From contig CAWHWX010000004.1 of the NCBI GenBank assembly GCA_963833125.1, positions 128,001 to 192,000 of the forward strand: 64,000 bases of DNA, given 5' to 3'. Made by a program: the position numbers and the translations under genes. Shown piece by piece: positions 28,788-48,677 of the stretch. This stretch comes from Candidatus Bathyarchaeota archaeon (GTDB lineage: Archaea > Thermoproteota > Bathyarchaeia > 40CM-2-53-6). The notes under the pieces were generated by a model. It was not told the DNA's origin and made no database searches. It was given only the letters and a program-made list of their open reading frames with translations. Position 1 is the stretch's first letter, and every line of letters starts with the position of its first letter.

Positions 28788-28840
28788 GGGAAAAAGAAGA
28801 GACGGCTCTCTTAGGAAGGCGCGAAAGTACGCCTAGAGAG
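28788..28840 (-). terminator. Hairpin plus T-tract after the YQP-repeat peptide gene
   Basis: Imperfect CTCTCTAGGCG...CGCC...TAAGAGAG stem followed by TCTCTTCTTTTTCCC on the minus strand. Confidence 0.5.
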
Positions 28841-28843
28841 GTG

Positions 28844-29041
28844 TCACTGGACCCTGTACGCTTGCGGTTGATAGGAGTAGTACTGGGCAGGTGGCTGATA
28901 TGAGTAATACTGCGTAGCTGGCTGATAGTAGGACTGCATGGGTGCTTGATAGTAGCACATCTCAGTGGGTGGTTGATAGTACTGGGCAGGAGGTTGATAG
29001 TAGTAGTATTGGGCTGCTGGCTGATAAAATGACATTGACAT
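28844..29041 (-). CDS. 65-aa Tyr/Gln/Pro tandem-repeat peptide
   Basis: MSMSFYQPAAQYYYYQPPAQYYQPPTEMCYYQAPMQSYYQPATQYYSYQPPAQYYSYQPQAYRVQ; GGAGG RBS; the repeat is better conserved in protein than in DNA. Confidence 0.75.
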   Translation of the reverse strand: MSMSFYQPAAQYYYYQPPAQYYQPPTEMCYYQAPMQSYYQPATQYYSYQPPAQYYSYQPQAYRVQ

Positions 29042-29058
29042 TCTTGTTTTCGCCTCCT

Positions 29059-29379
29059 TCAATTTTCGTTAAGCGCTTGCGGCTTCGTGTTGGTTTCTTC
29101 ATGCTTGCCGTGCGAGAATATGCTCCGTAGTTTTGACGTAATTCTCTGCGAAACCGAACCACTTTGAAAACGTGTCTTCTCGTACTCCGTGACCTCGCCC
29201 GTCCCGGATACGGTGACGTTGGCGTATTGGGTTCCGTTCGTTTCTTTTGTCTGTGTTTCCATTACCCAGATGTCTTGCCGTTGTGCAGATTTGATTTCCG
29301 TTTGTGCGCCTAATTCCTTTGTTTTTACATATTCGAGAGCGATTCGCTTTGCTTCAGTTTCATCGATCATTTTTTCCAT
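29059..29379 (-). CDS. PepSY-like small protein with an amphipathic basic tail
   Basis: IDETEAKRIALEYV...WVMET...VTVSGTGEV matches the PepSY pattern; no signal peptide. Confidence 0.7.
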   Translation of the reverse strand: MEKMIDETEAKRIALEYVKTKELGAQTEIKSAQRQDIWVMETQTKETNGTQYANVTVSGTGEVTEYEKTRFQSGSVSQRITSKLRSIFSHGKHEETNTKPQALNEN

Positions 29380-29400
29380 GACTGTTTCCCCGTACCTAAC

Positions 29401-29520
29401 TTAGATGTTACGTATACGCTCCGTCAGTTTCTCGAATTTACTCTGCTTCTTAGTAGAGAAATGCGTTTTCAGTTTTTCAAATCTACTCTTTTCTGTACCG
29501 AAATACTTGCTTAGTTTCAT
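29401..29520 (-). CDS. 39-aa basic amphipathic microprotein
   Basis: Hand translation MKLSKYFGTEKSRFEKLKTHFSTKKQSKFEKLTERIRNI with an internal repeat S[RK]FEKL; TTTATAT box about 35 nt upstream. Confidence 0.65.
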   Translation of the reverse strand: MKLSKYFGTEKSRFEKLKTHFSTKKQSKFEKLTERIRNI

Positions 29521-29725
29521 ATCGATCTACAATAGATCATAGTCGTTTTGCGGATATAAAGCTATGTATATATATTGTTAAATGTACACGACGCCAGTTA
29601 CGCCGGAATAGGGCAAACGCAGTGTGCTAAAATCTAGAGTTATCGAGTGTTGACGGTGCGACCGCCTTTCGAAGATTAGAGTGTCGACTCTGAAAACAGA
29701 GGCGAGAAACACAAAGGGAGGGAAC

Positions 29726-29893
29726 TCAGATCGCTTTCATGATCTCTTTGATATGCTGTTTAGCGCTGTCCTTGATTTCCTGGAATTCCTGGTTCTTGCC
29801 AAATTCTCCAAGACTTCGTTCAACCATCTCGAAGAGTTTGTCGATATCTTGCAGAAGCCCTGTGAGTTCTCCACGAATCTTTCCTGTGTCCAA
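29726..29893 (-). CDS. 55-aa helical microprotein
   Basis: Hand translation MDTGKIRGELTGLLQDIDKLFEMVERSLGEFGKNQEFQEIKDSAKQHIKEIMKAI; amphipathic periodicity; pyrimidine tract downstream. Confidence 0.6.
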   Translation of the reverse strand: MDTGKIRGELTGLLQDIDKLFEMVERSLGEFGKNQEFQEIKDSAKQHIKEIMKAI

Positions 29894-30035
29894 TTTTGAT
29901 CTGGATTGAGGGTCGGTTTACGCTTAATAAGCGTTCGCGAAAGATGCGAAGGAAGGGCGTTAGGTTTTGCAAGGAGCAAGCGATGCTGATGTGCGTTGGG
30001 CTTAAGATTAGACGGTTGAATTTAGGGGAATTGTC

Positions 30036-33252: not shown

Positions 33253-33672
33253 CTAAGTGCGCGCTTCGTCGGACTCTCTCATGCGTTGTATACCCTTTTT
33301 GGACGCTGCGTTTTGTAGCTTGGACAATTTGTCAATTTCGTCGAGCAGAACCTTGAGCTCCAGATTGTAATGGCCGCATTTGGGGCAGGTCTCGTCGCCC
33401 TTCAGTCTTTCCCTTTGCTCAATTAGCCTGCTTACAATGCCCTCATGAACTTCCAATTCTTGGTCAGTATGCTTGCGCGGAATAGCTATTTCGAGCTTAT
33501 GTTCTGGATTAGGATCGTCGCTTGTTTTGTATGTGCGAATCAAACACTCTTTGATTACGCAAAATTTGGCCGAGAAAAGATTACAATTCAGAGAGACTGC
33601 GTACGGGTTTGACTTACCCTGCCGCTCGTTTTGCCTTGCCGCCTCGCCAGTTTCTTCTGGCTCTTCCCCCAC
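33253..33672 (-). CDS. Hypothetical protein with a Cys motif
   Basis: Long ORF overlapping 33614; CPKCGH; coiled-coil-like C-terminus. Confidence 0.55.
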   Translation of the reverse strand: MGEEPEETGEAARQNERQGKSNPYAVSLNCNLFSAKFCVIKECLIRTYKTSDDPNPEHKLEIAIPRKHTDQELEVHEGIVSRLIEQRERLKGDETCPKCGHYNLELKVLLDEIDKLSKLQNAASKKGIQRMRESDEART

Positions 33673-33835
33673 TCACTCGCCCACGTCCACGTGGGGTCGT
33701 GAAGGATTCCCTGCATTGTTGCGAGCAGAAAACGTAGCCCTTGAATCGGATGTGTTTCTCGACTTTCTTGCCGCAGTTCGAACAGTATCTGGCATGCCTG
33801 TAGTTCACGATCTTAGTCAAACTTCTCCACGCCAT
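33614..33835 (-). CDS. TRASH/YHS-like zinc-finger microprotein
   Basis: YCSNCGKKV...GYVFCSQQCRESFT; paralogue at 48026; start uncertain. Confidence 0.65.
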   Translation of the reverse strand: MAWRSLTKIVNYRHARYCSNCGKKVEKHIRFKGYVFCSQQCRESFTTPRGRGRVSGGRARRNWRGGKAKRAAG

Positions 33836-34250: not shown

Positions 34251-34487
34251 ATGCGCGAGAAAGACAGTTTTCGAAAGAAAAATCTGCTGACGAAGATTGA
34301 AAACCTAATTGCCAAGAATGAAGAGGAAAAAAATAAACTGCCACGCGAGGAATACAACTTGAACGGACAATACATACAAGGATTCCTTGCAGGTCTGGAG
34401 GAAGCGCGACGCATAGTCAAGGGCCTTCCGTCAGGCGGACGACGTCAATCGGAGCTTCATCAGCGCCTCAAGGAGAGAAGAAAGTAG
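34251..34487 (+). CDS. Small charged helical hypothetical protein
   Basis: LLTKIENLI...YIQGFLAGLEEARRIV amphipathic helices. Confidence 0.55.
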   Translation: MREKDSFRKKNLLTKIENLIAKNEEEKNKLPREEYNLNGQYIQGFLAGLEEARRIVKGLPSGGRRQSELHQRLKERRK

Positions 34488-35165
34488 TGGAAAATCCGGA
34501 CAGAAGGAGAAGGATCCCAGATTACTTCCTGACCTCAATCCCCAATCGCTCTCAATGATAATTCCTAGCAGGAAAAACACTTCCACATCGTCCCTTTCGG
34601 CATGGCATTGATGTGACCTTTGTGAAGAGCGCGCTGCTATCTGTCGGATGGTACACGATTCTTCTTGCGCTTGCTCCTAACTGGGGTTAGACCAACGCCC
34701 CCCCGTGCCGCTTTGTCTTCAAGAATGGTAAGGTCAAACTCAACCTTCTTCCTTCTCTTACGGCCAATCTTACTTTCCTTCCATACCAAGATGATTCAAC
34801 AACCTAGTGCACAACCAGAGCAGATTTAGATTCCGGCATTGAGGGACGACGCGCCAAGGTAGATTTAGAGGAAGCGAGACAGAGGAGTACGAGGTCTCAG
34901 TATAAGGTGCAAGGTATGAGCAAAAACCTGAGATGCATCTTCTTTTGGAAGATCGAATCTACTCAACTTCCAGGTGTGATTCTGGTTTTCCTGCAAGCCT
35001 TCAGCAAATCGTTGCATGAGTGCTGATGCTTCGTCCATAGACGGACCGGTTCTTGTGTGAGTGTTAGAAAACCACACACAAAGAAAGATTGCCTGCACGA
35101 ACCCCACTCTTCTACGTTCTGACTAGAGAATAATAGCAGGATCCAACACAGTCTACACGAGAGAG

Positions 35166-36776
35166 ATGGGTGATTCAGGCTCATACTTGAAAGGGGTTCT
35201 TAGCCTATCTGTAGAAACAAACATGAGGCCTGCCCCGCCGACGGTCTCTGCTCTAGACGTAACCTCAACTGTAATGGATCTGATGGCAAAGGAAAACGTT
35301 GGATCCATAGTGGTTGTGGAGAACAGCCAACCCGTGGGGATAGTCACCGAGAGAGACATGCTCTATAGAGTCCTCAAGGCTGGCAAGAATCTTGAACTGA
35401 CGCTTGTTAAGGATGTAATGTCCAAACCTCTTGTCACGATCGATGCTGAGCGAACAATAGCAGACGCCTTGGAAACGATGCACAGGCATGACATCAGGAG
35501 ACTGATCGTAACAAGAAGGGGCGTCTTAGTCGGCCTTACCACGGAAAGAAGACTGCTGGAGATCGCCCACGGCCACTATGTCATGAAAGGTCTTGGTCCT
35601 CTAGAAGCGACAGATGGTTATGAAATCCACAAGATACGAGTCGCGTATGTGAGCACATATCCTCCTCGCGAGTGTGGCGTAGCTACATACACCAAGAATC
35701 TTGTCGATGCCGTCTCCGCGTTTTGTTCGCGAGTTGTGAGGCCTCCAGTGGTCGCGGCAATCAACGATAGAGGCGGACTATACAATTACGAGATTCGAGT
35801 AAAGTCTCAGATCGATGCTAACGACATTCAATCCTATGCGAAGGTCGCTCAGGACATCAACGCATCTGATGTGGATGTTGTGAACCTGCAGCATGAGTAT
35901 GGTATATTCGGAGGAGTATGGGGCGAGTATGTTAATGAGTTTCTGCAAAGAATTGAAAAACCGGTTATTACTACTCTGCACACGGTTCTTGAGGATCCGG
36001 TTCCCGATGCTAGAAGGGTAATGGAAGGAATTCTTGAACGTAGTGACTATGTCATCGTTATGGCAAAGGTCGGCATAGGAATACTGGAACAGCTCTATGG
36101 TAGTTACCCAGACAGGATTCGACACATACCTCACGGGTGTCCAAATGTACCTTACCTTGGAACTACGATGGCGAAACAAAGCTTGGGTTTGAAAGATCAT
36201 GTCGTGCTATCGACCTTCGGATTGCTAAGTCGCGGAAAAGGGATAGAATATGCAATAGAGGCACTCCCACACGTACTGAAAGGCCGTCCAGAAATCCTGT
36301 ATCTGGTTATCGGCGAGACCCATCCAGAGGTCAGGAAACGCGAAGGTGAAGAGTATCGAGAATTTCTGCTTGATCTCGTTGAATCACTTGGGTTAGAGAA
36401 GAACGTCAGATTTGTAAATCGGTTTCTGCCTGAAAACGAGTTGATCAATTACCTTCAAGCATCCGACATCTATGTAGTTCCGTACCCGAATCGAGAGCAG
36501 ATCAGCAGTGGGACACTTACATATGCTCTGAGCACGGGCAAAGCCATTGTTACAACTCCATTTCTTCAAGCCGAAGAGGCGATATCGAACGGCGCCGCCT
36601 TGGAATGCGGTTTCAAAGATGCGGACTCAATTGCTGAATGCGTGAATACACTGCTTAGAGACAAAGAGATTCATGACAGATTGGGCAGGATGGCGTATGA
36701 GTACAGCAGAGCCATGATATGGCCAAGCGTAGCTATGAGGTATGTCAACGTCTTCTACCATGCCCTTGGTCTCTGA
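35166..36776 (+). CDS. CBS-pair plus GT4 glycosyltransferase fusion
   Basis: VGSIVVV...GIVTERD...KDVMS CBS pair; STYPPRECGVATY, QHEYGIFGG, HIPHG, TFGLLSRGKGIE, SSGTL. Confidence 0.92.
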   Translation: MGDSGSYLKGVLSLSVETNMRPAPPTVSALDVTSTVMDLMAKENVGSIVVVENSQPVGIVTERDMLYRVLKAGKNLELTLVKDVMSKPLVTIDAERTIADALETMHRHDIRRLIVTRRGVLVGLTTERRLLEIAHGHYVMKGLGPLEATDGYEIHKIRVAYVSTYPPRECGVATYTKNLVDAVSAFCSRVVRPPVVAAINDRGGLYNYEIRVKSQIDANDIQSYAKVAQDINASDVDVVNLQHEYGIFGGVWGEYVNEFLQRIEKPVITTLHTVLEDPVPDARRVMEGILERSDYVIVMAKVGIGILEQLYGSYPDRIRHIPHGCPNVPYLGTTMAKQSLGLKDHVVLSTFGLLSRGKGIEYAIEALPHVLKGRPEILYLVIGETHPEVRKREGEEYREFLLDLVESLGLEKNVRFVNRFLPENELINYLQASDIYVVPYPNREQISSGTLTYALSTGKAIVTTPFLQAEEAISNGAALECGFKDADSIAECVNTLLRDKEIHDRLGRMAYEYSRAMIWPSVAMRYVNVFYHALGL

Positions 36777-36918: not shown

Positions 36919-37095
36919 TTGGGCAGACTCTACATTGTACTCTCAGACGCTGTTGAGCGCCGACTCCGATTGGCAGTTGTTGTGAGACTCGGTGGGAAGA
37001 AAGGAAACCTCAGCGGTGCGATACAAACGGCTGTCCTCGATTGGCTCAATAAGAAGCCGAGAAATCGACTATCGCACAACTTAGCAGTGGAATGA
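36919..37095 (+). CDS. Ribbon-helix-helix regulator, copy 1
   Basis: Hand translation MGRLYIVLSDAVERRLRLAVVVRLGGKKGNLSGAIQTAVLDWLNKKPRNRLSHNLAVE; GGTGA RBS; two paralogues nearby. Confidence 0.85.
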   Translation: MGRLYIVLSDAVERRLRLAVVVRLGGKKGNLSGAIQTAVLDWLNKKPRNRLSHNLAVE

Positions 37096-37453: not shown

Positions 37454-38698
37454 GTGAGGCTCGGAAAAATTATGGGGATTCCGATCAGAATTCATTACAC
37501 GTTGTGGTTCGTTTTCATTCTAATCGCCTGGTCGCTCGCGGTTGGATACATGCCTCATCAGTATCCGGGTCTTAGCACGGTGACCTATTGGGCCATTGGT
37601 ATTGCGTCCGCAATAATCCTCTTCGTTTCCATCCTTGTACATGAGCTCTCTCATTCTTACATAGCGAAGAAGAATGGGTTGCCGATTGCGAGAATTACGT
37701 TATTCTTCTTTGGAGGCGTCTCTGAGATGACTGAAGAGCCTCAAGATCCGGGCTTAGAGGTTCGAATGGCTGCCGCGGGTCCCTTGATGAGCTTCCTAAT
37801 CGGAGGCGTTTTGGGAGCACTTTGGTACCTGGGAGAGTCTGCTCACGCACCAGTCGCGATAATTGCTACACTCGGCTATGCGGCACTGATCAATGGAATT
37901 CTGGGAGCATTCAACCTACTTCCCGCGTTTCCGCTAGACGGTGGCAGAGTGCTCAGGGGAAGCATCTGGAAGAATTCGAACAATTTCGTCGGAGCCACTA
38001 GAACCGCTACAAGAGTTACTGAGGTCATTTCGTTGCTGATGATGTTCGGAGGATTCGCGTTCATAATCTTGGGAGACTTCGTTGATGGAATATGGGTAAT
38101 AGTACTAGGATGGTTCATCAGATCGGGGGCGCAAACCAGTCTCAAGCAAACGCTTGTTGGTGAAGCTCTTTTGGGGGTCTCGGTTGGCGACATCATGAGT
38201 AGTGAAGTGTTGACCGTCCCGCCGGAGATCACAGTTCAACAGCTAGTCTCAGATTATCTCCTTGTGCACCGCCACGGAGGCTACCCTGTTGTGAAGAACG
38301 GTGAGGTTCTGGGCATAGTCACATTGCAGTGCGTACGGGCTGTTCCTAAGGAAAGGCGGGATTCTGTGACTGTTCGTGAAGCAATGGTTCCATTCGAACG
38401 CACGGTAATGGTGCAGTCTTCTGTGAACGCCTTGGATGCGATGCAGAAGATGGCTCGGAACAAAGTCGGACGTGTCTTGGTGATCGACGGGGGCCGACTG
38501 GTCGGCATGGCAACTCGTGAGGACGTTGTCAGGGCGATCCAGATGCGACAAGAACTCGAACTGGGCCCTGGTCCGTCGGGTTTGCCTTCTCCCCAGTATC
38601 CTCGCATTCAAGCAGGGCATTGTGTCCAGTGCGGGGCCCTTTTGCCCGCCGACGTCAAATTCTGTTCTCAATGCGGCGCTAAACAAAACGTATCCTAA
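37454..38698 (+). CDS. Site-2 protease (M50) with a CBS pair and C-terminal zinc ribbon
   Basis: HELSH, AAAGP, FNLLPAFPLDGGR, CBS repeats, CVQCG...FCSQCG. Confidence 0.95.
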   Translation: MRLGKIMGIPIRIHYTLWFVFILIAWSLAVGYMPHQYPGLSTVTYWAIGIASAIILFVSILVHELSHSYIAKKNGLPIARITLFFFGGVSEMTEEPQDPGLEVRMAAAGPLMSFLIGGVLGALWYLGESAHAPVAIIATLGYAALINGILGAFNLLPAFPLDGGRVLRGSIWKNSNNFVGATRTATRVTEVISLLMMFGGFAFIILGDFVDGIWVIVLGWFIRSGAQTSLKQTLVGEALLGVSVGDIMSSEVLTVPPEITVQQLVSDYLLVHRHGGYPVVKNGEVLGIVTLQCVRAVPKERRDSVTVREAMVPFERTVMVQSSVNALDAMQKMARNKVGRVLVIDGGRLVGMATREDVVRAIQMRQELELGPGPSGLPSPQYPRIQAGHCVQCGALLPADVKFCSQCGAKQNVS

Positions 38699-38963: not shown

Positions 38964-39197
38964 TTGAGTGAAGAAGAGTCCAACGAAGAAGATGAAGAAC
39001 AACGTGAAGAAGCGCAGGAAGAAGATGAGCGAGATGAGGAACAGGAGGTAGACCGTAAAAGGGAAGGCGCTGACGAGAGTGCTGAAGAGGAAAGGGACGA
39101 GGATAGACTCGAGCAGGATGAAGAGGAGCGTGAACGGAAAGGGACAGGGCTGAAGGTCAAGACGCCGAAGAAAAAGTCCAACATCAAAACAGAATGA
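38964..39197 (+). CDS. 77-aa highly acidic disordered protein with a basic tail
   Basis: E/D/R-dominated sequence ending KVKTPKKKSNIKTE. Confidence 0.6.
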   Translation: MSEEESNEEDEEQREEAQEEDERDEEQEVDRKREGADESAEEERDEDRLEQDEEERERKGTGLKVKTPKKKSNIKTE

Positions 39198-39221: not shown

Positions 39222-40004
39222 CTAAGAAGATATTGAGGTTACGTTGAGGTAATTGCCTGGACACGCTGCCCCAGTTGAGCTAAAGTTGTGACCCTGATGT
39301 AGTTGTCCCGTCACGGACACCCATGTTCCGATGGTAGGATATGATGCCGGCAACTCCTGCAACGTGTAGTACTGTGAGGACATTAGTCCGATAGGACTGA
39401 CTATTGGAACTACGAGTTCAACACATGAGTTTGGATTCTGGTATAGGTATCCGGCACATTGCACCGTGTCGTTGCTATTTGGTGAATTACAAGAATTGAC
39501 AACCTGAGTGCCCGGACCGCAGTTATTGTTGTAGTAACAACCGGCATAGTTGACGTAATTGTTGTTAGTATTAACCTGCACAGTTTCAACGCTTGTTGTT
39601 AGTGGCGTCCCCGAGCCGTAGCCGTAAAAGGCACCGCTGTAGATGGAGAGTGAAATCTGTAGCGTATGTCCAGTGACTTGGGGTGGAATGCTGAATGCAA
39701 GTTGCCCCGTGTAGATGTTTGTTCCATAAGCGGAGGATAATGTAGCACTTGATGAATCCACGCGAACATTTGTTGAAGGATCGATTGCGTATCCCACAGC
39801 ATATAATTGCCCACCGACGAAGGGGCAGGTCACTGATACAGGGACTATGACTCCATTGGTATTATAGCCGTAGTAAAAGTTCGGGGATGTGTAGGCGAGC
39901 GAACTGGGGTGTATGGCGCACGTTTGGGCTGAAACCTGACTAGTGCCTACCGCAAGCACTGCCAGAACGACTACCAACAGCATGATTCTGAAATAAGTTC
40001 TCAT
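39222..40004 (-). CDS. Secreted Cys-containing protein (paralogue of 25460-26221)
   Basis: Signal peptide MRTYFRIMLLVVVLAVLAVG; shared motifs along the whole length. Confidence 0.85.
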   Translation of the reverse strand: MRTYFRIMLLVVVLAVLAVGTSQVSAQTCAIHPSSLAYTSPNFYYGYNTNGVIVPVSVTCPFVGGQLYAVGYAIDPSTNVRVDSSSATLSSAYGTNIYTGQLAFSIPPQVTGHTLQISLSIYSGAFYGYGSGTPLTTSVETVQVNTNNNYVNYAGCYYNNNCGPGTQVVNSCNSPNSNDTVQCAGYLYQNPNSCVELVVPIVSPIGLMSSQYYTLQELPASYPTIGTWVSVTGQLHQGHNFSSTGAACPGNYLNVTSISS

Positions 40005-40146: not shown

Positions 40147-40335
40147 TTGAAAACATGTAAGTATTGCAACAAACAGAATTCAGACGACAATAATTACTGC
40201 AACTGGTGTAGAACCGTGCTAAGTAATTTTCCAGACCGACCACAACGAGGACAGTGTCTGATTTGCGGAACCCGATGCGCTCCTGACGCGCGCTTCTGCG
40301 GATTATGCAGTTCACCGCTGATAGTATTCAGCTGA
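40147..40335 (+). CDS. Double zinc-ribbon microprotein
   Basis: CKYC..YCNWC and CLICG..FCGLC. Confidence 0.7.
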   Translation: MKTCKYCNKQNSDDNNYCNWCRTVLSNFPDRPQRGQCLICGTRCAPDARFCGLCSSPLIVFS

Positions 40336-40651: not shown

Positions 40652-40834
40652 TTACCAATAGTACGGATATCCATACCAACCGTAGCCGTACCAAGGCCAG
40701 GAATAGTTCCATCCATAGAATGGATAGCTGTACGAACCGTAGCTGTAACCATAGGACGGATAACCGTATGTTGGATAGCCATACGAACCGTGGCCGTAAT
40801 AGTTGTTCCCAGCACATACACATACACATGACAT
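40652..40834 (-). CDS. 60-aa Gly/Tyr/Trp-rich peptide with an N-terminal CxCxC
   Basis: MSCVCVCAGNNYYGHGSYGYPTYGYPSYGYSYGSYSYPFYGWNYSWPWYGYGWYGYPYYW; perfect GGAGGTGA RBS; terminator downstream. Confidence 0.8.
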   Translation of the reverse strand: MSCVCVCAGNNYYGHGSYGYPTYGYPSYGYSYGSYSYPFYGWNYSWPWYGYGWYGYPYYW

Positions 40835-40855: not shown

Positions 40856-41023
40856 TTACATTCCACGAACTCCAAGCCTCTGCCAGTCCTTACCTAACCA
40901 ATCACTGACAGCTTCCTCTATCGCGATGCTAAGATCCCCCTTCTTTCCTCCAAGCCTTTTCACGACTGCAACTCGGAGTCGGCGCTCAATTTCATCCGAG
41001 AGTACTACGTAGATTTTTCCCAA
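40856..41023 (-). CDS. Ribbon-helix-helix regulator, copy 2
   Basis: Hand translation MGKIYVVLSDEIERRLRVAVVKRLGGKKGDLSIAIEEAVSDWLGKDWQRLGVRGM; 21 nt upstream of the Tyr-rich peptide. Confidence 0.85.
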   Translation of the reverse strand: MGKIYVVLSDEIERRLRVAVVKRLGGKKGDLSIAIEEAVSDWLGKDWQRLGVRGM

Positions 41024-41060: not shown

Positions 41061-41107
41061 GATATAAGCTTGTATATTTAGCTTTATACATATATAACTT
41101 TATAACT
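41061..41107. promoter_or_regulatory. Divergent promoter between RHH copy 2 and the 22-aa peptide
   Basis: TTATACATATATAACTTTATAAC matches TTATAAATATATAACCTTATAAG at 41655-41677 in 20 of 23 positions. Confidence 0.6.
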
Positions 41108-41145
41108 GCCAATACACTATATCAAGTGTCGGAGGGAAATTCAGA

Positions 41146-41214
41146 ATGAGCATAAACATCGGTATTCTTGGGATAATAGTTATTGTTGTAGTTCTCTGGT
41201 TAATTCTTCGTTAA
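41146..41214 (+). CDS. 22-aa single-TM microprotein
   Basis: MSINIGILGIIVIVVVLWLILR; GGAGG RBS; 18-bp perfect palindrome CTTCGCTTCGAAGCGAAG at 41221-41238 just after the stop. Confidence 0.6.
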   Translation: MSINIGILGIIVIVVVLWLILR

Positions 41215-41385: not shown

Positions 41386-41613
41386 TCAGGAGGACCGTTT
41401 CGAAGTACTGTGTCTTCCTGAGCTTTTTTCACGCAGCTGACCGTACACCCATTTGCTGATGTTAGCTTCTGTAGCATGTTTTTCCAACCATTCTTTGATC
41501 GCCAGCTCGATAGCGCTGCTTAGATCGCCCTTCTTTCCTCCGAGAATTGTGACAACGGCCAGTCGGAGTCTGCGTTCGGTTTCGTCAGAAAGAACTATAA
41601 ACATTTTTCCCAA
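41386..41613 (-). CDS. Ribbon-helix-helix regulator, copy 3
   Basis: MGKMFIVLSDETERRLRLAVVTILGGKKGDLSSAIELAIKEWLEK. Confidence 0.85.
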   Translation of the reverse strand: MGKMFIVLSDETERRLRLAVVTILGGKKGDLSSAIELAIKEWLEKHATEANISKWVYGQLREKSSGRHSTSKRSS

Positions 41614-41712
41614 AAATCCACATTCCCTAAGGCTTACTATATTCAGCGTTATCGTTATAAATATATAACCTTATAAGCGCAGTTCAACAATGTACGGCCT
41701 GAGTTAATTGAT

Positions 41713-41967
41713 ATGAGCAAAATCTATTCCATGATAGCGCCGTTACTTGGCCTAAGTCTAATTCGAATCCTTAACGCGATAGGTGTGAATCAGAATGCAG
41801 GTACGATGGTTAATTCAGCGTACCAGTGGCTGCTGACTCTAAACCCAATCGTTATGATAATACTAGGCATAATCGTATTCTTTGCGGGCAAGCTAGCGAA
41901 ATGGGTCGGAATCATATTGGTCATCGTGGGACTAATCTTCCTCGCGCTGCCATACCTACACCTTTAG
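41713..41967 (+). CDS. Small membrane protein
   Basis: Hydrophobic hairpin IVMIILGIIVFFAGKLAKWVGIILVIVGLIF; start uncertain. Confidence 0.65.
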   Translation: MSKIYSMIAPLLGLSLIRILNAIGVNQNAGTMVNSAYQWLLTLNPIVMIILGIIVFFAGKLAKWVGIILVIVGLIFLALPYLHL

Positions 41968-41994
41968 ATTTAGAACTCAAAGGGATGATCTTCG

Positions 41995-42312
41995 ATGGCT
42001 AACGCTTCCTTGGGAAAGGCTGCATACTATCTAGCATTAATCGGCGGAGTAATCCTCATAATCCAAGGGATTCTGAGTTTCGTGGGAATGGCTTTCATGA
42101 TGTTCATGCCATCCTTGCTTGGAGCCCTCGGTGGAGCCTTCTGGGGAATCATTGAAATCATCCTCGGCCTTGTTGCCATCTATGGATCCAAACGTCTTCC
42201 CGACCTCATGTGGGATATCATTCTCATAGTGGTTGGCGTGCTCGGAGGCGGCCTTGGCGGTATACTAGTACTCCTGGGCGGCATAGTCGGCTTACTATGC
42301 AAGTTCCTCTAA
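41995..42312 (+). CDS. Small Gly-rich polytopic membrane protein
   Basis: About four TM segments with GxxxG motifs. Confidence 0.8.
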   Translation: MANASLGKAAYYLALIGGVILIIQGILSFVGMAFMMFMPSLLGALGGAFWGIIEIILGLVAIYGSKRLPDLMWDIILIVVGVLGGGLGGILVLLGGIVGLLCKFL

Positions 42313-42389: not shown

Positions 42390-45117
42390 TTGAGCGAAAA
42401 AGGAAGGAGAACTTCACTTCAAGCAGCAGTAATCCTTCTTACAATATTTTCCTTTTCCGTCATGGCGGTAAACGCACAACAACTACTTCCCACATTCGCC
42501 TTAGCCGCTACACCTTCGAGTTTGAATCTAGTCGCAGGCTCGCAAGCGAACGTAGTTGTAACCGTCACTTCGTTGAACGGATTCAGTGATCCAGTGCAAC
42601 TGTTTTTCTCAGTCCTTCCGGTTGGTGTCACAGCTAATTTCAACTCAAATCCCGTTACGCCGCCTGCGGGAGGTACCTTGACTACAACCGCGTCGTTCAC
42701 CGCGGATTCAAATGTGGCAGGTAACACATACTACCTCACACTTGTTGGATCGAGCGGTTCAACTATCCACACATATGCATTTAACCTGCAAGTAACACCC
42801 AAGACTCTCCCGCAGGACTTCGCGCTTTCTCCATCCCCGACAGTTGTCAACATACTGCCTGGCGGACAAGGATCCACCACCGTCACCGTCTTCTCCCTCA
42901 ACGGTTTCTCTACAAGCGTGTCCTTGGTACATAGCGGGGAACCATCCGGTGTGTCTTTGAGTTTCTCGGAAAACCAATTGTTCCCTCCCCCGGGCGTTAC
43001 GAGCCCTTATGTTACATCATCTAGTTCAGTGCTTTCGATCTCCGTCCAGTCGTGGGTGGCCGTTGGACTCTATCCAATCGCCGTAACCGGTACAAGCGGC
43101 CCGTTAGGTATCCCTCAAAGCGTAATCGTTCATTCGACCCAGCTCACTTTGCAGGTGGTTTCAGCTAAGGATTTCAATATCGCAGTTGCGCCTTCGAGTC
43201 TAAGCATTCAGCCTGGCACATCTACTACCGCCACGGTAACCGTGGGCTCTTACAGCGGATTCTCTTCTGCCGTGCAACTAACATCCAATAGTCCTCCCGG
43301 GATTTCTTTGAATTTCTCACCAAATCCGATGACCGAATTATCTGGTGGGGCAGCAACCGCAACCGCGACCGTATCAGTCAGTTCGTCGACTAGTTCGGGA
43401 ACGTATTCGATGCAGATTATTGGGACCAGCGGAGGGTTAACGCACAGCACACCGTTCACGATTATCGTATCTCAAACTGCGAGCCCAGACTTTACTATTA
43501 CCTCTTCGTCCGTTCCGATCGGAGTTAATCAAGGAGCGAGCTCAGGAGGAACTGTTTATGTGTCCTCGGTCAACCACTTTACGTCGCCCATTACCCTGTC
43601 CGCATCCTGGTTTGGCATGTCCCCTCAAGGCCTATCTTTCACTATTCCTGGGTCTGCCACTCCGCCCGACGATGGGTCTTCCCCCGCTGCCGTAACATTT
43701 TCCGCGTCGACTACGACTCAACCAGGAACATATACGCTCAACGTAGTGGGGACGAGTGGTTCGCTTAGCCATTCGGTGAATATCTTGGTCCAGGTCCTGG
43801 TATTCGGAGGCGACTTCAGCGTCTCAGTTTCACCGACACCGATTAGTGTGATTCAAGGTTCACAAGGAACCTCAACTGTTACGGTGCAAGCCTCCGGAAC
43901 ATTCTCCTCTCCTGTCACTCTCACAACAGCCGCTGTGAACGGATTGAGTGTAAGCTTCAATGCGAGCCCTATACCTGTCTCGTTGGCCGGAACCGCAGCC
44001 GCCCAGGTTGTCGTATCGGTCGCAGGATTTACACCAACGGGAACCTACACGATACCGATTATTGCAACAAGCGGATCCCTTTCGCATTCCACAAGCTTGG
44101 CGGTGACCGTGATTCGGGCTGGCTTGCAAGACTTTGCAATTGGAATTTCGTCAGCGACGATCATGATAAATCAGGGAAGTTCAGCGGCGGCAACGGTATC
44201 TGTCTATTCACAAAACGCATTCAGTTCCAGTGTCTCACTGTCAGCTTCCTGGAATAGCATAGTTCCTGGCGGAGTCACGATCAACCTCTACGGGCCTGTA
44301 ACCCCGTTGCCAAACGCAGTTGCCTCCTCGACTCTAACCATAACCACTTCCCCTACGGCCACAACGGGAAGCTACCTGCTACAGGTCACCGGGTTCAGTG
44401 GAGTGCTTGTACACACAGCGAACGTGACTATTCAGATCACGTCACCTTCAGCTACCGTTACAACTGTTAGCGGTACATCCACTAGCGGAACGTCTACTAG
44501 CGGCACATCGACCAGCGGTACATCCACTAGCCCAAGTAGTGCGCCTCCCGCATGCCTCATCGCGACTGCAACATATGGTTCACAAGTCGCACCTGAGGTT
44601 CAGTTGCTCCGCAACTTCCGTGATAACTCTATCATGGAAACCAAATCGGGGTCCAATTTCATGCTAGTTTTCAACGCCTGGTACTATTCATTCAGCCCCG
44701 GTGTCGCCGCATACTTGAACACACACTGGGTTGAACGAACAGCAATGAAAGGCGTCCTCTATCCCCTCGTAGGAATCCTATACCTAACATCAGACCTGTT
44801 CTCGGCAACCTCTTCCTACCCCGAATTTGCTGTACTAATATCCGGCCTCCTAGCAAGTTCCCTAATCGGCGCTTTCTACTTGGGAATACCATTGGCTGTG
44901 TTGAGAGCTAGAGTCAGGCGTCTCCGCAATTGGAAGGGCCAGGCAGATGCTTGAGATAGCGCTCGCTGCCATGCTGTTTGGTGGATTAGGAACCCTCGCG
45001 TTCGGAGAACTGTTCTCATCACAACCAGCCCTCATAATATCGACAACTACGATAGTACTTTCAACACTATTCATGTCCTCAGTAATAGTATCCGAGAGAC
45101 TCGCCAATCGACTCTAG
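42390..45117 (+). CDS. Cell-surface protein with about six Ig-like repeats and a CFI-box-CTERM domain (indel near 44945)
   Basis: Repeats of DF.i..sP....v.qG...TV.V.S..gFs..V.L...GTSG.L.HS; CLIATATYGSQVAPEVQLLRNFRD...WYYSFSP; TM helices continue in another frame to TAG 45117. Confidence 0.9.
44469..44528 (+). repeat. Four 15-bp coding repeats (SGTST)
   Basis: AGCGGTACATCCACT-like units in the Ser/Thr linker. Confidence 0.85.
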
Positions 45118-45363
45118 AAATCAGAACCGTCAGAAAACCGCCCGAATGCAAATCCGGTGAGCATCAAGTCTCACTTCATACGCCGAGTTATGTGCCGAAT
45201 TTCGGCGTACCTACGTAACTAGCAAGCAACTAATTGACCTAACGCCCGCGCACGATAAGATCTACCGAAGTTTACCTTTGAGCCCTCGAGTGACTGCGAC
45301 AGAGGTTTACCCGTTCGTGTTCACAACCATCGCTTAGTCTACTTGTGGCATCTCAATGATGCA

Positions 45364-45401
45364 AAAGGAAAAATGTACGATTAAGCAATCCGCTTAATCG
45401 T
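45364..45401 (-). terminator. Hairpin plus T-tract after the CsbD-like gene
   Basis: ACGATTAAGC-N5-GCTTAATCGT (45377-45401) followed by ACATTTTTCCTTTT on the minus strand. Confidence 0.7.
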
Positions 45402-45417
45402 CAGATAGAAATTCAGG

Positions 45418-45567
45418 TTAAATCGATGCCTTAGCCTTTTGCCATCTTTCGCGAACCTTTCCTACGCGCTGTTGATACTTACCCTTCATCATCTGACCTA
45501 TATTCAATGTCGCTCTGCCTTGTAGTTCGCGAATCTTACCCCTTATCTGCTGGTTTTTACCATTCAT
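45418..45567 (-). CDS. 49-aa CsbD-like microprotein
   Basis: Hand translation MNGKNQQIRGKIRELQGRATLNIGQMMKGKYQQRVGKVRERWQKAKASI; GAAGGTGA RBS; own terminator. Confidence 0.7.
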   Translation of the reverse strand: MNGKNQQIRGKIRELQGRATLNIGQMMKGKYQQRVGKVRERWQKAKASI

Positions 45568-45792
45568 GAGTTCTTTTCACCTTCTTTCCAAATATATAGA
45601 TATCAGTACACATATGTAAGCATTGTTCCGCATAACCTAGGGCTTGAATGTTACCTGTGCAATCCAGCTCTTGCCGCCGTCCCTTCTCAAAAACAGTATA
45701 GCAATTAATTGAAGGCCAGATCCACCGGATGATTTGAGCCCAATCGGTCGTAGAAACCCTTATCGGAGCAAGTCTCTTGTTTTGCTAAACGA

Positions 45793-46470
45793 ATGGTTTT
45801 GTCGACTCAAGCTAAACAAGAGATTAGAATCAAACCGAGTCTTGTGCCATTCGCTTGGAAAGGCTTTGTCATAATATTATTGGGCATCGTGGTTTTCGGT
45901 GTGAGCTTTGTTCTCCAGTTTCCATCACCATCTGTTGGTTCTCTTCTAACCCTTGCAGCCTTGGCATTAATTGGCTTAGGCCTCCTGGTTGTTTTGATTG
46001 GTGTTGTTCGTAGGAATGCATTCACGTATCTGATTACTGACTCGGATGTTGTTGTGAAGAGGCAGTTGTTGCGACGTAGTATTCGTCGTATTCCGTTCTC
46101 GTCTATTAGCGATGTGCAGGTTTCGCAGAGTATTGTGGGTCGATTGGCAAGATTTGGCGACATTGTTCCTGTTACGAAGAGTGGCTACGGTTTAGTTCGC
46201 GGGACGGAACCTGGTGAAAACATAGTCGCAGAAATGGCCAATGTCCCGAACCCGGACAAGGTAGCTGATTTGATCATGTCCAGATTACTGCGCCGGCAAA
46301 GCCGATTAGCACCAGCGACCTTTTCGATCATTGGCGATGGGGAAAGCGGACACGCACTACGTTCGGAACATGACGTGCTCGGGACCTGCCATTATCTCAT
46401 GCCTAGGTTTATTTTCAGAGAAGTGTGTCACGGAACACGATCTCTTATCACCGTATGTATGCTCGTATGA
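45793..46470 (+). CDS. Membrane protein with a bacterial PH (bPH_2-like) domain; C-terminus possibly frameshifted
   Basis: Two TM helices, then TYLITDSDVVVKRQLL...IPFSSISDVQVSQSIVGRLARFGDI...NVPNPDKV. Confidence 0.8.
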   Translation: MVLSTQAKQEIRIKPSLVPFAWKGFVIILLGIVVFGVSFVLQFPSPSVGSLLTLAALALIGLGLLVVLIGVVRRNAFTYLITDSDVVVKRQLLRRSIRRIPFSSISDVQVSQSIVGRLARFGDIVPVTKSGYGLVRGTEPGENIVAEMANVPNPDKVADLIMSRLLRRQSRLAPATFSIIGDGESGHALRSEHDVLGTCHYLMPRFIFREVCHGTRSLITVCMLV

Positions 46471-46634
46471 ACTCAACCCGCGGGGGTGACAATTCGGCCA
46501 TGTTTTATTTGTATTTGATCGTTGTTCGAATAGATTGCAGTAACAGCATCGGGCCCATGTTCTTGCGTCTGGCAGTTTGACGATATAGATATGTAGCGCA
46601 ATTCAACTATGTTACGTCCTGAGGCGAATCGTTG

Positions 46635-46787
46635 TTGGACCTATTAGTGGCCATAATCGTGGTTATCGTGATTCTCTGGCTACTGGGACTCATTGCCGGT
46701 ATCGGCGGATTTCTGATCAACATATTGCTCGTCATAGCGGTCATAGTGATAATAGTTAGATTACTTCAAGGCCGTCGGATATTGTAA
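46635..46787 (+). CDS. lmo0937-like (DUF5670) small membrane protein
   Basis: Hand translation MDLLVAIIVVIVILWLLGLIAGIGGFLINILLVIAVIVIIVRLLQGRRIL matches the LWLLG...GGLIHILLVIA...RLIQGRR family pattern. Confidence 0.8.
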   Translation: MDLLVAIIVVIVILWLLGLIAGIGGFLINILLVIAVIVIIVRLLQGRRIL

Positions 46788-46801
46788 TAGGAGTTCTTGT
46801 T

Positions 46802-47020
46802 ATGAGTTATTCGAACAATTACTGCGATAAGTGCGGCGCCAACCTTAAGCCCCAGTTCAAGTTCCGTGGGAACCAGCCCATGCTGTTCTACTGTTTGCAG
46901 TGCAAAGCCCCTAGAACCGTCCCGGCCACAGACCATAAGCAACGAACCGACTACGCAATGGCTGATTGCCCCACATGCGGCTCAAAAATGAGCACATACG
47001 AAGCGAACCCTTCAGGATAG
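46802..47020 (+). CDS. Zinc-ribbon protein (C-terminal part DUF5679-like)
   Basis: CDKCG, FYCLQCKAPR, CPTCGSKM. Confidence 0.7.
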   Translation: MSYSNNYCDKCGANLKPQFKFRGNQPMLFYCLQCKAPRTVPATDHKQRTDYAMADCPTCGSKMSTYEANPSG

Positions 47021-47063
47021 AAGGGACAAAACCTGAAAAACAGATTGAAGAGGTGATTTCAAG

Positions 47064-47192
47064 ATGGCGAAGAAGAGTAGAGGCGGCAGAATGACCGCGG
47101 CGAAGGCTGCGGCGAAGAAGCGTGCCGCTAAGTCGAGGGTTGCGGCGAAAAGGCGTGCCGCTAAGTCGGCTCGGAACATCATGAGGACTTAA
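47064..47192 (+). CDS. 42-aa Lys/Arg/Ala-rich histone-H1-tail-like peptide
   Basis: Hand translation MAKKSRGGRMTAAKAAAKKRAAKSRVAAKRRAAKSARNIMRT; GAGGTGA RBS; internal 33-bp tandem duplication. Confidence 0.75.
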   Translation: MAKKSRGGRMTAAKAAAKKRAAKSRVAAKRRAAKSARNIMRT

Positions 47193-47198
47193 TGGTGG

Positions 47199-47372
47199 TT
47201 ACATCATGCCTGGGGGCATTCCGCCAGGCATTCCTCCCGGCATCCCGTAGCGGCCTCCTGGAGGACCACCTTCCTTCATGCTTTTTGAAGAGAAGGATGT
47301 CATCTATCAGCAGAAGCATGTAGGCGGCTTCTGTGGCGATTTGACGGTTTGCTGTTTCACTCTGAGGGATTC
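47199..47372 (-). pseudogene. Degraded 3' fragment of a thermosome gene
   Basis: With indels it reads [52 protein letters not shown], homologous to the 3' end of 11655-13319. Confidence 0.85.
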
Positions 47373-48025
47373 GTCTATGTTAGACGATCATCAAGTTGTA
47401 ATTTCTATGAATGAGGTAACGGCCTTGACCTAGACTCAGAGGCCTGTTCTTAGAGAGCCTCAAGATTGTGTGGCCTGCGCCACATGGTTTCTGGCTGTTA
47501 CCTCTGGTAACTATATGTCCTCCGCGCTATATTAACACACTAAGCTCTCCCTTTCGAACCCCACTCCGACAACCATAAGATTTCTTACATCCGAAATTTC
47601 ATGCGAACTCATGCGGAAAGACGACTTCCGCTTGAGCAAATTGAGGAGATCGACGGTCGACGTGCACATATCGCAGCGCTCGAAGCAATCCTTGGTTCTA
47701 GTCGTGAGCCCTCGTCGTTTTCCTTCTCTTTCTTCTTTTCGACTTATCTTCTTGATCTTGAGGCAATTTATTTCACGCAGCTAGGAATTTGCGATTCTCT
47801 TTCGTAATTCCTTTTTGTCATAAGATTTCGTGGCCCTCGTTCTGCTGTTCTCTTGTTTTCTTTCCTCTCGTCTCTTCCTTTCTGACTCTGCTTCTCTCCT
47901 TTCCTTTCACAACCGATCCCACACTAGCTACCGATGAGAAAGCCTATCGCCAAATGGACGTTTCACCGAAGTCAAGCGGCGATGCGAATAGAACCTTTCC
48001 TGTTCAGTACCAGAACCGCAAGTAA

Positions 48026-48148
48026 TCAGGGGTTCGGGCCAAGTCGCGGCTGCGTGAAGGATTCTCGGCATTGTTCTGAGCAGAATGCGTACCCCTCGTG
48101 TAGAACAGGTTTGTCGATTTTCTTACCGCAATTTGAACAATACGCCAT
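48026..48148 (-). CDS. 40-aa TRASH/YHS-like zinc finger (paralogue of 33614)
   Basis: Hand translation MAYCSNCGKKIDKPVLHEGYAFCSEQCRESFTQPRLGPNP. Confidence 0.75.
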   Translation of the reverse strand: MAYCSNCGKKIDKPVLHEGYAFCSEQCRESFTQPRLGPNP

Positions 48149-48529
48149 GTGAGCTTCCTTTGTCCCTGCAGCCAACTCTCTACACACCATTTGCGATTTC
48201 TAATCATTACCTCTATGTCAAGCGTCTTCTACAAACTTTTTGGATTTGGGGTTCGGCTAGCCAAACGACCCAAAGCATGGTATAGGCGAAGGATCCCCAG
48301 ACAACAAACGGCGACTGTAACTGTCGATGGCGAGAATTACCCTCTAAAGGATGATGGAGCATAACGGTGTGCTTTGCAATTCAAGCAAATATTAACAGGA
48401 AAAGTTCTTCAATTCGCAGCATGTTAGGAATCGATGGAAGGGTCTTGATTTGACGAGGCCAGAATGGCAGAAGAAACGGAAGAGAATGGCGAGTAGAGCG
48501 GGTCAAGCGAGCGGCAGGACGCGGTAGAT

Positions 48530-48677
48530 TTGGCACAAGTTGGGAAAGGCCTCGAAGACCAAAAATGCCCCAATTGCCATCGAATCAACTTACGCCCTCT
48601 GTGGAACCTGCGGGAAATGCAACAAGTGCTGTAATTGTAGCTCCCACACTAACCGCTCGGACACCGAGCCAGGTTAA
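48530..48677 (+). CDS. Cys-rich metallothionein-like microprotein (requires removing one base near 48596)
   Basis: MAQVGKGLEDQKCPNCHRINLR/LCGTCGKCNKCCNCSSHTNRSDTEPG; span is 3n+1. Confidence 0.45.

Follow-up and report, generated by a model that had tools for sequence, protein, structure and literature searches.

The stretch of DNA analysed here (the window) comprises 64 kb from a member of the Bathyarchaeia, abundant, uncultured archaea of soils and sediments whose gene regulation is almost unstudied. This work concerns its region at ~28.2-48.7 kb, where three small ribbon-helix-helix (RHH) proteins are encoded among many other very short genes. The genes are conserved in relatives, a 32-nt TA-rich promoter block is shared between several of them, and this block co-occurs with the RHH genes. 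Judged from the sequences, there is about an even chance that this rearranging region carries a lineage-specific regulon, autoregulated by RHH proteins, whose members are small membrane proteins and low-complexity proteins.

Related loci were gathered through the M50 metalloprotease with CBS domains encoded in the region (Table 1). All 29 loci are contigs of metagenome-assembled genomes (MAGs) of Bathyarchaeia/Bathyarchaeota from peat and soil, except four that come from MAGs labelled as bacterial. The orthologue of the protease is 91-96% identical in seven of them (L001-L007), and the remaining loci carry a paralogue of 47-80% identity or a more distant homologue. The co-occurrence of genes and block was compared within 10 kb on either side of the M50 gene. 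Every open reading frame (ORF) of 20 aa or more was listed for the gaps that separate the large genes. A set of 36 of the region's proteins, 22 being shorter than 80 aa, was compared with the 29 loci by tblastn. Selection was gauged by pairwise Nei-Gojobori estimates of the ratio of non-synonymous to synonymous substitution rates (dN/dS), each of which is based on few substitutions per gene. The GC content of the window is ~0.48-0.51 overall.

The heptamer TATATAT occurs 11 times in the window (3.0 expected; none of 100 shuffles reached 11), and all occurrences lie at six promoters inside the region, i.e. those of o29401, RHH1, p292, RHH2/TM22, RHH3/mem84 and the CsbD-like gene (names as in Table 1). 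These (TA)n boxes are kept at the orthologous promoters in L001, L002 and L005. The shorter ATATAT is present in 10 of the 24 promoters inside the region and in none of the 34 outside it (four divergent pairs counted twice). The divergent intergenic regions of RHH2 and RHH3 have in common a longer, 32-nt TA-rich block, which overlaps the core promoter. A model of this block, R1, was made from six sequences (the RHH2 and RHH3 promoters in the window, L002 and L005) and a refined model, R2, from eight sites. The scans used sequence-only models with every filter off, their E-values being rough (shortened calibration), and left out L027-L029 (three of the 29 loci; GC 0.37).

All 12 R1 matches in the window with E <3.5 are located at promoters inside the region. 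Besides the two training copies, the window contains a full-length copy in front of o29401, which R1 matches over 29551-29581 and which includes a TATATAT run and scores 28.6 bits with R2, and a partial copy upstream of the lmo0937-family gene (R1 match over 46578-46597; R2 16.5 bits, E 1e-3). Two further non-training sites were found in L002 (18955-18985 and 5240-5271), where the two lmo0937 copies of that genome are preceded, at distances of 34 and 36 nt, by full-length R1 matches of 18.2 and 14.0 bits. Each of the four non-training sites precedes its start codon by ~24-36 nt and has the orientation seen at TM22 and mem84. In the 21 loci lacking RHH genes (333,751 bases), R1 gave three matches at E <=5, the best with 8.5 bits (E 0.32); L001, L004 and L006 contained no R1 match, and R2 found nothing above 9.8 bits in a further 96.5 kb of control loci. 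By a signature pattern and tblastn, L002 and L005 proved to be the only related loci that share RHH genes with the window. The first-pass annotation, made from the letters of the DNA alone, had named the lack of a shared motif beyond the TATA box as a refutation; the block is such a motif, as it holds conserved non-TA positions (e.g. its CGTTAA end), stands at four promoters and is tied to RHH2 and RHH3.

Several other motif candidates were discarded. The sequence TTATATAT with one mismatch was not enriched (30 matches, 29.7 expected), ACATATG gave 7 matches against 5.7 expected and GAACAAT 18 against 10.7 (2 of 100 shuffles reached 18), and the TATATAT sites of L006, L007, L009, L014 and L016 fall within unrelated ORFs or next to them.

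The reality of the small genes was assessed by their conservation. Homologues of at least 50% identity were found by tblastn in L001, L002 or L005 for 18 of the 22 candidate ORFs shorter than 80 aa; the other four (o28332, o29401, o47818 and o48540) had no homologue or poor matches only in the 29 loci and are left unvalidated. Two of the 18 proved to be fragments: the ORF at 47199-47303 (minus strand) corresponds to the C-terminal end of a thermosome ORF of 552 aa in L002 and L005, and that at 44947-45117 (plus strand) is in frame with the 895-aa L002 orthologue of an 854-aa surface protein, of which it forms the membrane anchor. With these removed, 16 genes of fewer than 80 aa are validated, which bears out the earlier count of at least 15. 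Their ORF lengths are maintained in the relatives, and dN/dS is 0.09-0.46 for 15 of the 16 and 0.74 for the CsbD-like gene; for comparison, the values for large neighbours are 0.09-0.15 (M50) and 0.27 (854-aa protein). The high density of small genes is a local feature, since the flanks outside 28.2-48.7 kb are packed with ordinary housekeeping genes (trp operon, thermosome, phosphoglucomutase, aldehyde dehydrogenase, ABC transporter, helicase).

The signals ascribed to the small genes by the first-pass annotation were borne out in part. Shine-Dalgarno-like GGAGG or GGTGA motifs precede at least eight of them, in agreement with the ribosome-binding sites claimed. As for terminators of their own, well-placed terminator-like sites follow Yrich2 and the CsbD-like gene and a hairpin follows TM22, but there is no general excess of such sites (21 observed versus 17.8 +/- 4.3 in shuffles).

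Four transcription units headed by the block comprise 13 ORFs, nine of which are shorter than 80 aa. In the first, Yrich2 is probably co-transcribed with RHH2. Its homologues in L001, L002 (96 aa) and L005 (53 aa) are conserved at both termini (dN/dS 0.13-0.30), and it is preceded by GGAGGTGA and followed by a terminator-like hairpin at 40605-40623. TM22, on the other side of the block, has the same position and length in L002 and L005, with 11 of its 22 residues invariant (dN/dS 0.40, from only 15 substitutions), GGAGGG upstream and a palindromic hairpin downstream. In the second unit, mem84 and mem105 have orthologues in L002 and L005 (78-85% identity, dN/dS 0.14-0.43), and a look-alike search of a protein atlas returned clusters of hypothetical Bathyarchaeota proteins for mem105 (0.94). 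The large surface protein downstream is a single 895-aa ORF in L002 that spans both parts of the split gene (81% identity, dN/dS 0.27).

The third unit is the o29401-p106-Yrich1 array. The L002 orthologue of p106 is 70% identical (dN/dS 0.20). Yrich1, which has GGAGG upstream and tandem 27-nt repeats, is 60% identical to its L005 homologue, which reaches 118 aa through additional repeats (dN/dS 0.09). The fourth unit, the lmo0937-ZnF72-basic42 operon, begins with the protein that had been called lmo0937-like, an assignment upheld by scores above both family cut-offs (NCBIfam NF033488, 38.4 versus 30; DUF5670, PF18919, 37.7 versus 23.5). The atlas search with basic42 gave nothing at >=0.9.

The 22-aa transmembrane peptide and the two Tyr-rich, the basic and the acidic small proteins, all recognised in the first-pass annotation, have conserved homologous ORFs in the relatives. 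No Pfam or NCBIfam family matched the Tyr-rich peptides, the acidic protein, basic42, TM22, o29726 or o34251. The termini are conserved in the Tyr-rich peptides, TM22 and basic42, and in the Tyr-rich ones the number of repeats varies, giving lengths of 53-96 aa and 65-118 aa between species. In-frame tandem repeats lie within the genes for basic42 (47101-47168, 33 nt x2) and Yrich1 (28851-29033, 24-27 nt x5). A collection of 5.8 billion protein clusters contained only two homologue clusters of Yrich2 and three of ZnF72, a scarcity that may be due in part to gene callers missing small ORFs. ZnF72 also resembles the Elf1 zinc ribbon, though below threshold (21.1 bits versus a cut-off of 29.8), and one of its homologues is named 'transcription elongation factor Elf1', which we regard as a lead only.

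The three RHH proteins are paralogues, as had been proposed: they fall into a common alignment, in which RHH1 and RHH2 are 63% identical, and share a GGKKG(D/N)L loop, whose back-translation matches the window at exactly three places with none expected. RHH2 reaches the cut-off of 27 bits for Pfam RHH_6 (PF16762) with 27.1, and RHH3 and RHH1 remain below it (22.5 and 14.2). Orthologues of RHH2 and RHH3 are present in L002 and L005 (dN/dS 0.15-0.23 and 0.21-0.27, respectively); RHH1 has no positional orthologue in L001, L002 or L005. The clade is tight within the Bathyarchaeia, with 37 close homologue clusters of 57-93% identity that are named only as RHH proteins, 21 of which carry PF16762. 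A wider set comprises 745 representative clusters at E <=1e-3, and all of the 150 listed are small stand-alone proteins. All three RHH genes start with TTG (36919, 41023, 41613) and many homologues are recorded with Leu or Val as first residue, which suggests that a non-AUG start is conserved in these genes.

An AlphaFold2 model of the RHH monomer based on 40 aligned sequences (mean pLDDT 73.4) shows an extended segment (residues 1-9) and two helices (10-24 and 31-52). Modelled as a homodimer, RHH2 scored 0.43 (best of three controls 0.00), with an interface formed by residues 1-10 and 34-43. At least 90% of contacts are common to the runs, and the partner pLDDT is at least 68. Of proteins with solved structures, 20 of 30 one-chain pairs reach the mark applied, as does 1 of 23 single-chain proteins. 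Structures of RHH dimers have been solved many times over, and the predicted homodimer may reflect likeness to those already solved. The family profile also matched PDB entry 2k6l, a 51-aa 'putative uncharacterized protein' (E 4.2e-7), whose sequence family includes a GG-(K/R)-KGDLS inter-helix loop like the one found here. The entry may be a plasmid-borne RHH protein of Xanthomonas, for which no paper was found under XACb0070.

Based on these observations, we suggest that RHH2 and RHH3, putative stand-alone PF16762 repressors each transcribed divergently from genes for small membrane proteins, would bind as dimers to repeated TA-rich subsites of the 32-nt block. Competition with TBP and TFB on the block would let the RHH proteins repress about a dozen genes besides their own. 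The predicted targets are the two Tyr-rich peptides, TM22, the lmo0937-family, zinc-finger and small basic proteins, two small membrane proteins and the large surface protein, a list that points to the membrane and cell envelope and not specifically to stress. What we infer here is that RHH proteins bind the block, as well as the direction in which they regulate and any physiological trigger. In copy 1 of the block, TRF found an 8-nt period (3.2 copies, low score of 31).

Binding and repression are proposed because of the analogy with the archaeal regulators SvtR, AvtR and aCcr1. SvtR and AvtR are reported to repress their own genes, to act on other promoters including those of structural proteins, to oligomerise towards TATA/BRE (the TFB recognition element) and to compete with TBP/TFB (PMC5569661), which is the mechanism proposed above. 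However, they are encoded by viruses of Sulfolobus and Acidianus, whereas the RHH genes described here are chromosomal and without viral context, and SvtR (PDB 2kel) matches our RHH profile only with E 0.35.

A chromosomal parallel is provided by aCcr1 (the SiL_0190 / SIRV2 gp21 clade of Sulfolobales) and CdrS of Halobacteria, which are likewise stand-alone chromosomal RHH proteins without an effector domain. In the available account, aCcr1 is a small RHH-only regulator that binds AGTATTA, a motif present at multiple promoters (PMC9976892). As with the block, this is a short promoter motif across several unlinked targets, and conservation within the lineage is high in both cases (81-100% identity reported for aCcr1, 55-93% for the RHH proteins here). 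The motifs differ (a 32-nt TA-rich block versus 7 nt), as do the targets, which are microproteins and membrane or surface proteins here and cell-division genes for aCcr1/CdrS. Binding is a conjecture in the present case; the likeness is one of description, and neither protein was among the PDB matches of the RHH profile. Small RHH regulators with a promoter motif are already known, and it is the proposed microprotein targets that are unusual and uncharacterised. A literature search on Bathyarchaeia and ribbon-helix-helix proteins returned nothing on this topic by title or abstract. If the proposal is true, it provides a concrete and cheaply testable regulator-operator pair (a 55-aa protein and 32 bp of DNA), a defined group of conserved microproteins, most of which escape gene callers, and, besides aCcr1 and CdrS, a third archaeal case in which very small RHH proteins govern a multi-gene programme.

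The gene neighbourhood is rearranged even between close relatives. L002 is colinear with the window over 40716-47382, and in L005 these genes lie reshuffled and more tightly packed beside the M50 gene. L003, L004, L006 and L007 have essentially only the M50 gene in common with the window and are occupied around it by genes of ordinary size. The lmo0937 trio of L005 has no block of its own and belongs to the array divergent from RHH3, where it follows mem105 at a distance of 25 nt, and in L002 p106 follows the large surface-protein gene inside the same array. As both remain within the RHH3-divergent array, these rearrangements keep the link to RHH.

Such plasticity is also what would be expected if there were no functional unit at all, i.e. 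if a plastic zone had collected small genes, the block were a duplicated bidirectional core promoter and the roles of the RHH proteins were unrelated or local. This explanation, which we consider rather unlikely but the main rival, accounts for the almost wholly different M50 neighbourhoods of L003, L004, L006 and L007, the scrambled order in L005, the thermosome 3' remnant and truncated gene in the region, and the half of the small genes that have no block. It also fits the position of the block exactly mid-way in divergent regions of 99-122 nt, where two TATA boxes are expected. On the other hand, full-length blocks, including the non-TA CGTTAA end, stand at unidirectional promoters (o29401 and both lmo0937 copies of L002), the block is conserved between species at lmo0937 while the flanking sequence diverges, and the absence of ATATAT from all 34 promoters outside the region shows that it is not a generic promoter of this genome.

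Several observations weigh against the RHH-linked regulon as such. The block may be a compact bidirectional core promoter (back-to-back TATA/BRE) copied along with the genes; as RHH2 and RHH3 are paralogues, their promoters share ancestry, and as the three genomes are close relatives (M50 91-95% identical), the co-occurrence of RHH genes and block is confounded by descent. The site at lmo0937 in the window is only partial (11.1 bits, with rough E-values), o29401 has no homologue in the 29 loci, and no block directly precedes p106 or Yrich1 in L002 and L005. Further (TA)n boxes are accompanied by weak block matches only, i.e. at RHH1 (36870-36885, E 0.5-2.4), p292 (40043-40051, conserved in L001, E 1.1) and the CsbD-like gene (45592-45598, E 2.1 with R1, not found with R2). 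A composite AACAAT...TATATA pattern was found at three sites versus 0.16 expected, and this pattern was designed after seeing the data. Lastly, the fold search with the RHH model reached no significance (best E 1.2), although Arc repressor and NikR rank first and MazE and ParD2 are in the top 21.

The extent of the putative regulon is limited too. R2 does not raise the promoters of RHH1, p292 or the CsbD-like gene, and neither model matched at the Zn-FCS pair, DZR, the acidic protein, o29726, o34251, the GT4 gene or the M50 protease gene. Because the block is found at only four promoters (RHH2/TM22, RHH3/mem84, o29401 and lmo0937), the small-gene island is not one regulon: the CsbD-like gene, the Zn-FCS pair, DZR, the acidic protein, o29726, o34251 and RHH1 are neighbours without a demonstrated link. 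Of the RHH-driven programme suggested by the first-pass annotation, the block at four RHH-linked units is retained, but CsbD, RHH1, p292 and the remaining small genes, which have no block, drop out.

That annotation had interpreted the whole 20 kb as a single general-stress, stationary-phase or dormancy programme in which an RHH family takes the place of a sigma factor, an interpretation that we find quite improbable. The roles that it put forward, such as DNA compaction, coat or condensate peptides and glycan synthesis, are speculative. It has in its favour the presence of lmo0937-family and CsbD-family genes in the cluster, the thermosome paralogue abutting the cluster in L002 and L005, and the RHH-linked block shared by part of the small genes. 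In Listeria, lmo0937 is reported to be sigma-B dependent, with lowered expression in a sigB mutant (PMC7690807). The homologues of csbD and lmo0937, two small members of the sigma-B regulon of Firmicutes, lie within 1.2 kb of each other here, but they do not share the promoter block, and neither do GT4, M50, Zn-FCS, DZR, the acidic protein, o29726 and o34251 have one. We know of no sigma factor in archaea. The stress inference rests only on the behaviour of csbD and lmo0937 in Firmicutes, and since to our knowledge the functions of these proteins are not known even there, their homology carries no stress meaning into an archaeon. A literature search on CsbD small proteins in archaea found nothing on archaea by title or abstract.

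Nor do the zinc fingers argue for a stress programme, as small zinc-finger proteins are common throughout archaeal genomes. For Haloferax volcanii, ~282-400 proteins shorter than 70 aa, 43-49 of them with C(P)XCG motifs, are reported (PMC10716476, PMC11241148), and some of its abundant one-domain zinc-finger micro-proteins matter for stress adaptation, biofilm formation and swarming (PMC6562870). Unlike those described here, they are not reported to be clustered, and the four zinc-finger proteins of the region match the NCBIfam HVO_ models only at E 0.03 or worse.

A bolder version holds that a Bathyarchaeia-specific, effector-less RHH clade is the master switch of a microprotein programme that takes in the Tyr-rich peptides, TM22, the lmo0937-like peptide, a small basic protein and surface proteins and that remodels envelope and cytoplasm on entry into a resting or stressed state, the RHH proteins acting through a TATA-overlapping 32-nt operator, as a sigma-independent archaeal counterpart of the general stress response. 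We would give little credence to this idea at present; the link between RHH proteins and block says nothing yet on stress or dormancy.

The RHH fold is typical of antitoxins, and MazE and ParD2 appear among the top fold matches and CopG-family antidotes in the PDB sequence search. The 22-aa hydrophobic peptide divergent from RHH2 is moreover conserved in three genomes. A toxin-antitoxin-like system, with RHH repressors controlling membrane-active peptides (TM22, lmo0937-like, mem84) and growth arrest on derepression, nevertheless seems very unlikely. PADLOC assigned none of 27 proteins to a known defence system at E <=1e-3, no known toxin family was found in Pfam or NCBIfam, the genes are divergent, unlike the usual antitoxin-toxin operon, and at their C-termini the RHH proteins carry no toxin-binding domain, however short.

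Mobile elements and proviruses are typically rich in RHH and zinc-finger mini-proteins. The many small ORFs of both kinds, the variable neighbourhoods and the slightly lower GC content of the region (0.44-0.50, flanks ~0.50) would fit a decayed integrated element or provirus. We find this extremely hard to believe, as no integrase, replication, packaging or capsid gene was found, a PHROGs search with 24 proteins gave only sub-threshold matches or matches not specific to viruses, the window contains no tRNA and the region no flanking direct (att-like) repeats, and housekeeping genes (PEPCK, M50, GT4) are interspersed.

Table 1. Window coordinates of genes and promoter elements in and around the small-gene region
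Feature	Position	Strand	Description
RHH1	36919..37095	+	58-aa ribbon-helix-helix protein, TTG start, distinct C-terminal subgroup
RHH2	40856..41023	-	55-aa ribbon-helix-helix protein, TTG start
RHH3	41386..41613	-	75-aa ribbon-helix-helix protein, TTG start, variable C-terminal tail
Block copy 1	41078..41109	-	122-nt divergent RHH2/TM22 intergenic region; R1 30.1 bits (training); conserved in L002, L005
Block copy 2	41649..41680	-	Centre of 99-nt divergent RHH3/mem84 intergenic region; R1 31.9 bits (training); conserved in L002, L005
Block copy 3	29550..29581	+	Towards o29401, 30 nt upstream; R1 17.8 bits, E 2.7e-4, full length
Block copy 4 (partial)	46577..46597	-	35-55 nt upstream of lmo0937; R1 11.1 bits, E 0.036
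Yrich2	40652..40834	-	60-aa Tyr/Gly-rich microprotein, 21 nt downstream of RHH2
TM22	41146..41214	+	22-aa hydrophobic peptide, divergent from RHH2
mem84 and mem105	41713..41967, 41995..42312	+	Small polytopic membrane proteins, divergent from RHH3
Large surface protein	42390..45117	+	Signal peptide, C-terminal membrane anchor; split into 854 aa and 56 aa by a frameshift
o29401	29401..29520	-	39-aa basic ORF, first behind block copy 3; unvalidated
p106	29059..29379	-	106-aa protein; sub-threshold Pfam matches only
Yrich1	28844..29041	-	Repeat microprotein rich in Gln, Tyr and Pro; closes the o29401-p106-Yrich1 array
lmo0937-ZnF72-basic42 operon	46632..47192	+	Same order and spacing in L002, L005; dN/dS 0.14-0.33
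lmo0937-family	46632..46787	+	51 aa, two transmembrane segments; 50-52 aa in three genomes
ZnF72	46802..47020	+	72-aa zinc-finger protein, three CxxC
basic42	47064..47192	+	42-aa Ala/Lys/Arg-rich protein, invariant termini
CsbD-like	45418..45567	-	49 aa; Pfam CsbD (PF05532) 25.7 bits, E 1.1e-5, cut-off 40
bPH_2 protein	45793..46470	+	Membrane-flanked bacterial PH domain, Pfam 2.1e-13; orthologues in L002, L005
o29726	29726..29893	-	55-aa predicted helical protein, no family
ZnFCS1	33614..33835	-	Small FCS/TRASH-like zinc finger, paralogue of ZnFCS2; sub-threshold zf-FCS, DUF2116, YHS matches
ZnFCS2	48026..48190	-	54-aa FCS/TRASH-like zinc finger; zf-FCS 21.8 bits, cut-off 22.4
o34251	34251..34487	+	78-aa protein, no family
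Truncated zinc-ribbon protein	34637..34789	-	50-aa remnant of a basic protein; ~220 nt of the 3' part gone
CBS-GT4 glycosyltransferase	35166..36776	+	Pfam CBS 1.7e-19, Glycos_transf_1 1.8e-17
M50 metalloprotease (site-2-type)	37454..38698	+	CBS pair, C-terminal zinc ribbon (Pfam); anchor of the comparison
Acidic protein	38964..39197	+	77 aa, Glu/Asp-rich
p292	39222..40004	-	Secreted/surface protein; start inferred at the Met before a signal-peptide-like segment
DZR	40147..40335	+	62-aa double zinc ribbon, Pfam DZR 31.1 bits, cut-off 27.3
Thermosome 3' remnant	47194..47382	-	~190 bp left, equivalent to the 3' end of the 552-aa L002 and L005 ORFs

The CsbD-like assignment made in the first-pass annotation is supported only by way of a relative: the window copy falls below the Pfam cut-off, but its L002 orthologue (71% identical) exceeds it with 41.1 bits. 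The dN/dS of 0.74 derives from 24 differences over 147 nt of coding sequence, of which 6 are synonymous and 18 non-synonymous. The 93 nt upstream are 93% identical between the two species (45568-45660 and L002 17785-17877), and the promoter looks more constrained than the protein. The gene, which has a terminator-like hairpin at 45377-45401, probably has its own regulation.

Zinc fingers were correctly recognised among the small proteins, and DZR passes its Pfam cut-off (89% identity in L001 and 85% in L002, dN/dS 0.16). ZnFCS1 has a homologue of 74% identity in L002 (dN/dS 0.20) and contains a 90-nt repeat 77% identical to 48053-48142; ZnFCS2 has one of 73% identity in L005 (dN/dS 0.46). Pfam matches also confirm the two CBS-containing enzymes reported earlier, the GT4 glycosyltransferase and the site-2-type M50 protease. 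The acidic protein is 87% identical in L001 and 68% in L002 (ORFs of 73-78 aa, dN/dS 0.15-0.22), and the L001 orthologue of p292 is 91% identical. The L002 orthologue of o29726 is an intact 55-aa ORF of 84% identity (dN/dS 0.18), and o34251 is 76% identical in L002, with one internal stop, and 72% in L005 (dN/dS 0.22-0.25).

Remnants and truncations, too, mark the region as prone to rearrangement within this group of species. The full 552-aa thermosome gene is present in L002 (19581-21239, next to basic42; Cpn60_TCP1 3.3e-190) and L005 (14748-16406), and the window has an intact thermosome gene elsewhere (11655-13319). The truncated zinc-ribbon gene corresponds to full-length ORFs of 149 aa (L002) and 140 aa (L005). 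Upstream of it, ~240 nt of non-coding sequence (34790-35027; L002 2337-2563; L005 9247-9487) are ~85-90% identical and differ by 1-nt indels. An RNA structure in the conserved 370 nt at 34640-35040 was considered and rejected, as covariation gave no support (term +3.46) and the first 150 nt are the truncated protein gene. Rfam gave no match at the gathering score in the whole window and none at E <=1 in 28000-49300.

Five genes of the window are split by frameshifts, i.e. those for phosphoenolpyruvate carboxykinase (PEPCK, 30036-31821), Nramp (49392-50670), TrpB (15516-16716), phosphoribosylanthranilate isomerase (PRAI, 16713-17358) and the 854-aa protein (42390-45117). Because housekeeping genes are split too, we suspect assembly indels more than pseudogenes. 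The CBS-GT4 gene of L007 is likewise split, in three ORFs.

A second sparse stretch of the window, at 21184-25460, contains only short ORFs of 78-104 aa, one of which has a fragment of a luciferase-like domain. Among the loci labelled as bacterial, L009, L019 and L023 (Acidiferrales, Methylomirabilota and Acidoferrum) encode a protease 65-76% identical to the Bathyarchaeia one and are probably mis-binned archaeal contigs. Five MAGs contain two CBS-M50 genes each (L001/L010, L002/L012, L003/L020, L006/L008 and L007/L014), one 91-96% and the other 66-71% identical to that of the window, which by these identities form an old pair of paralogues.

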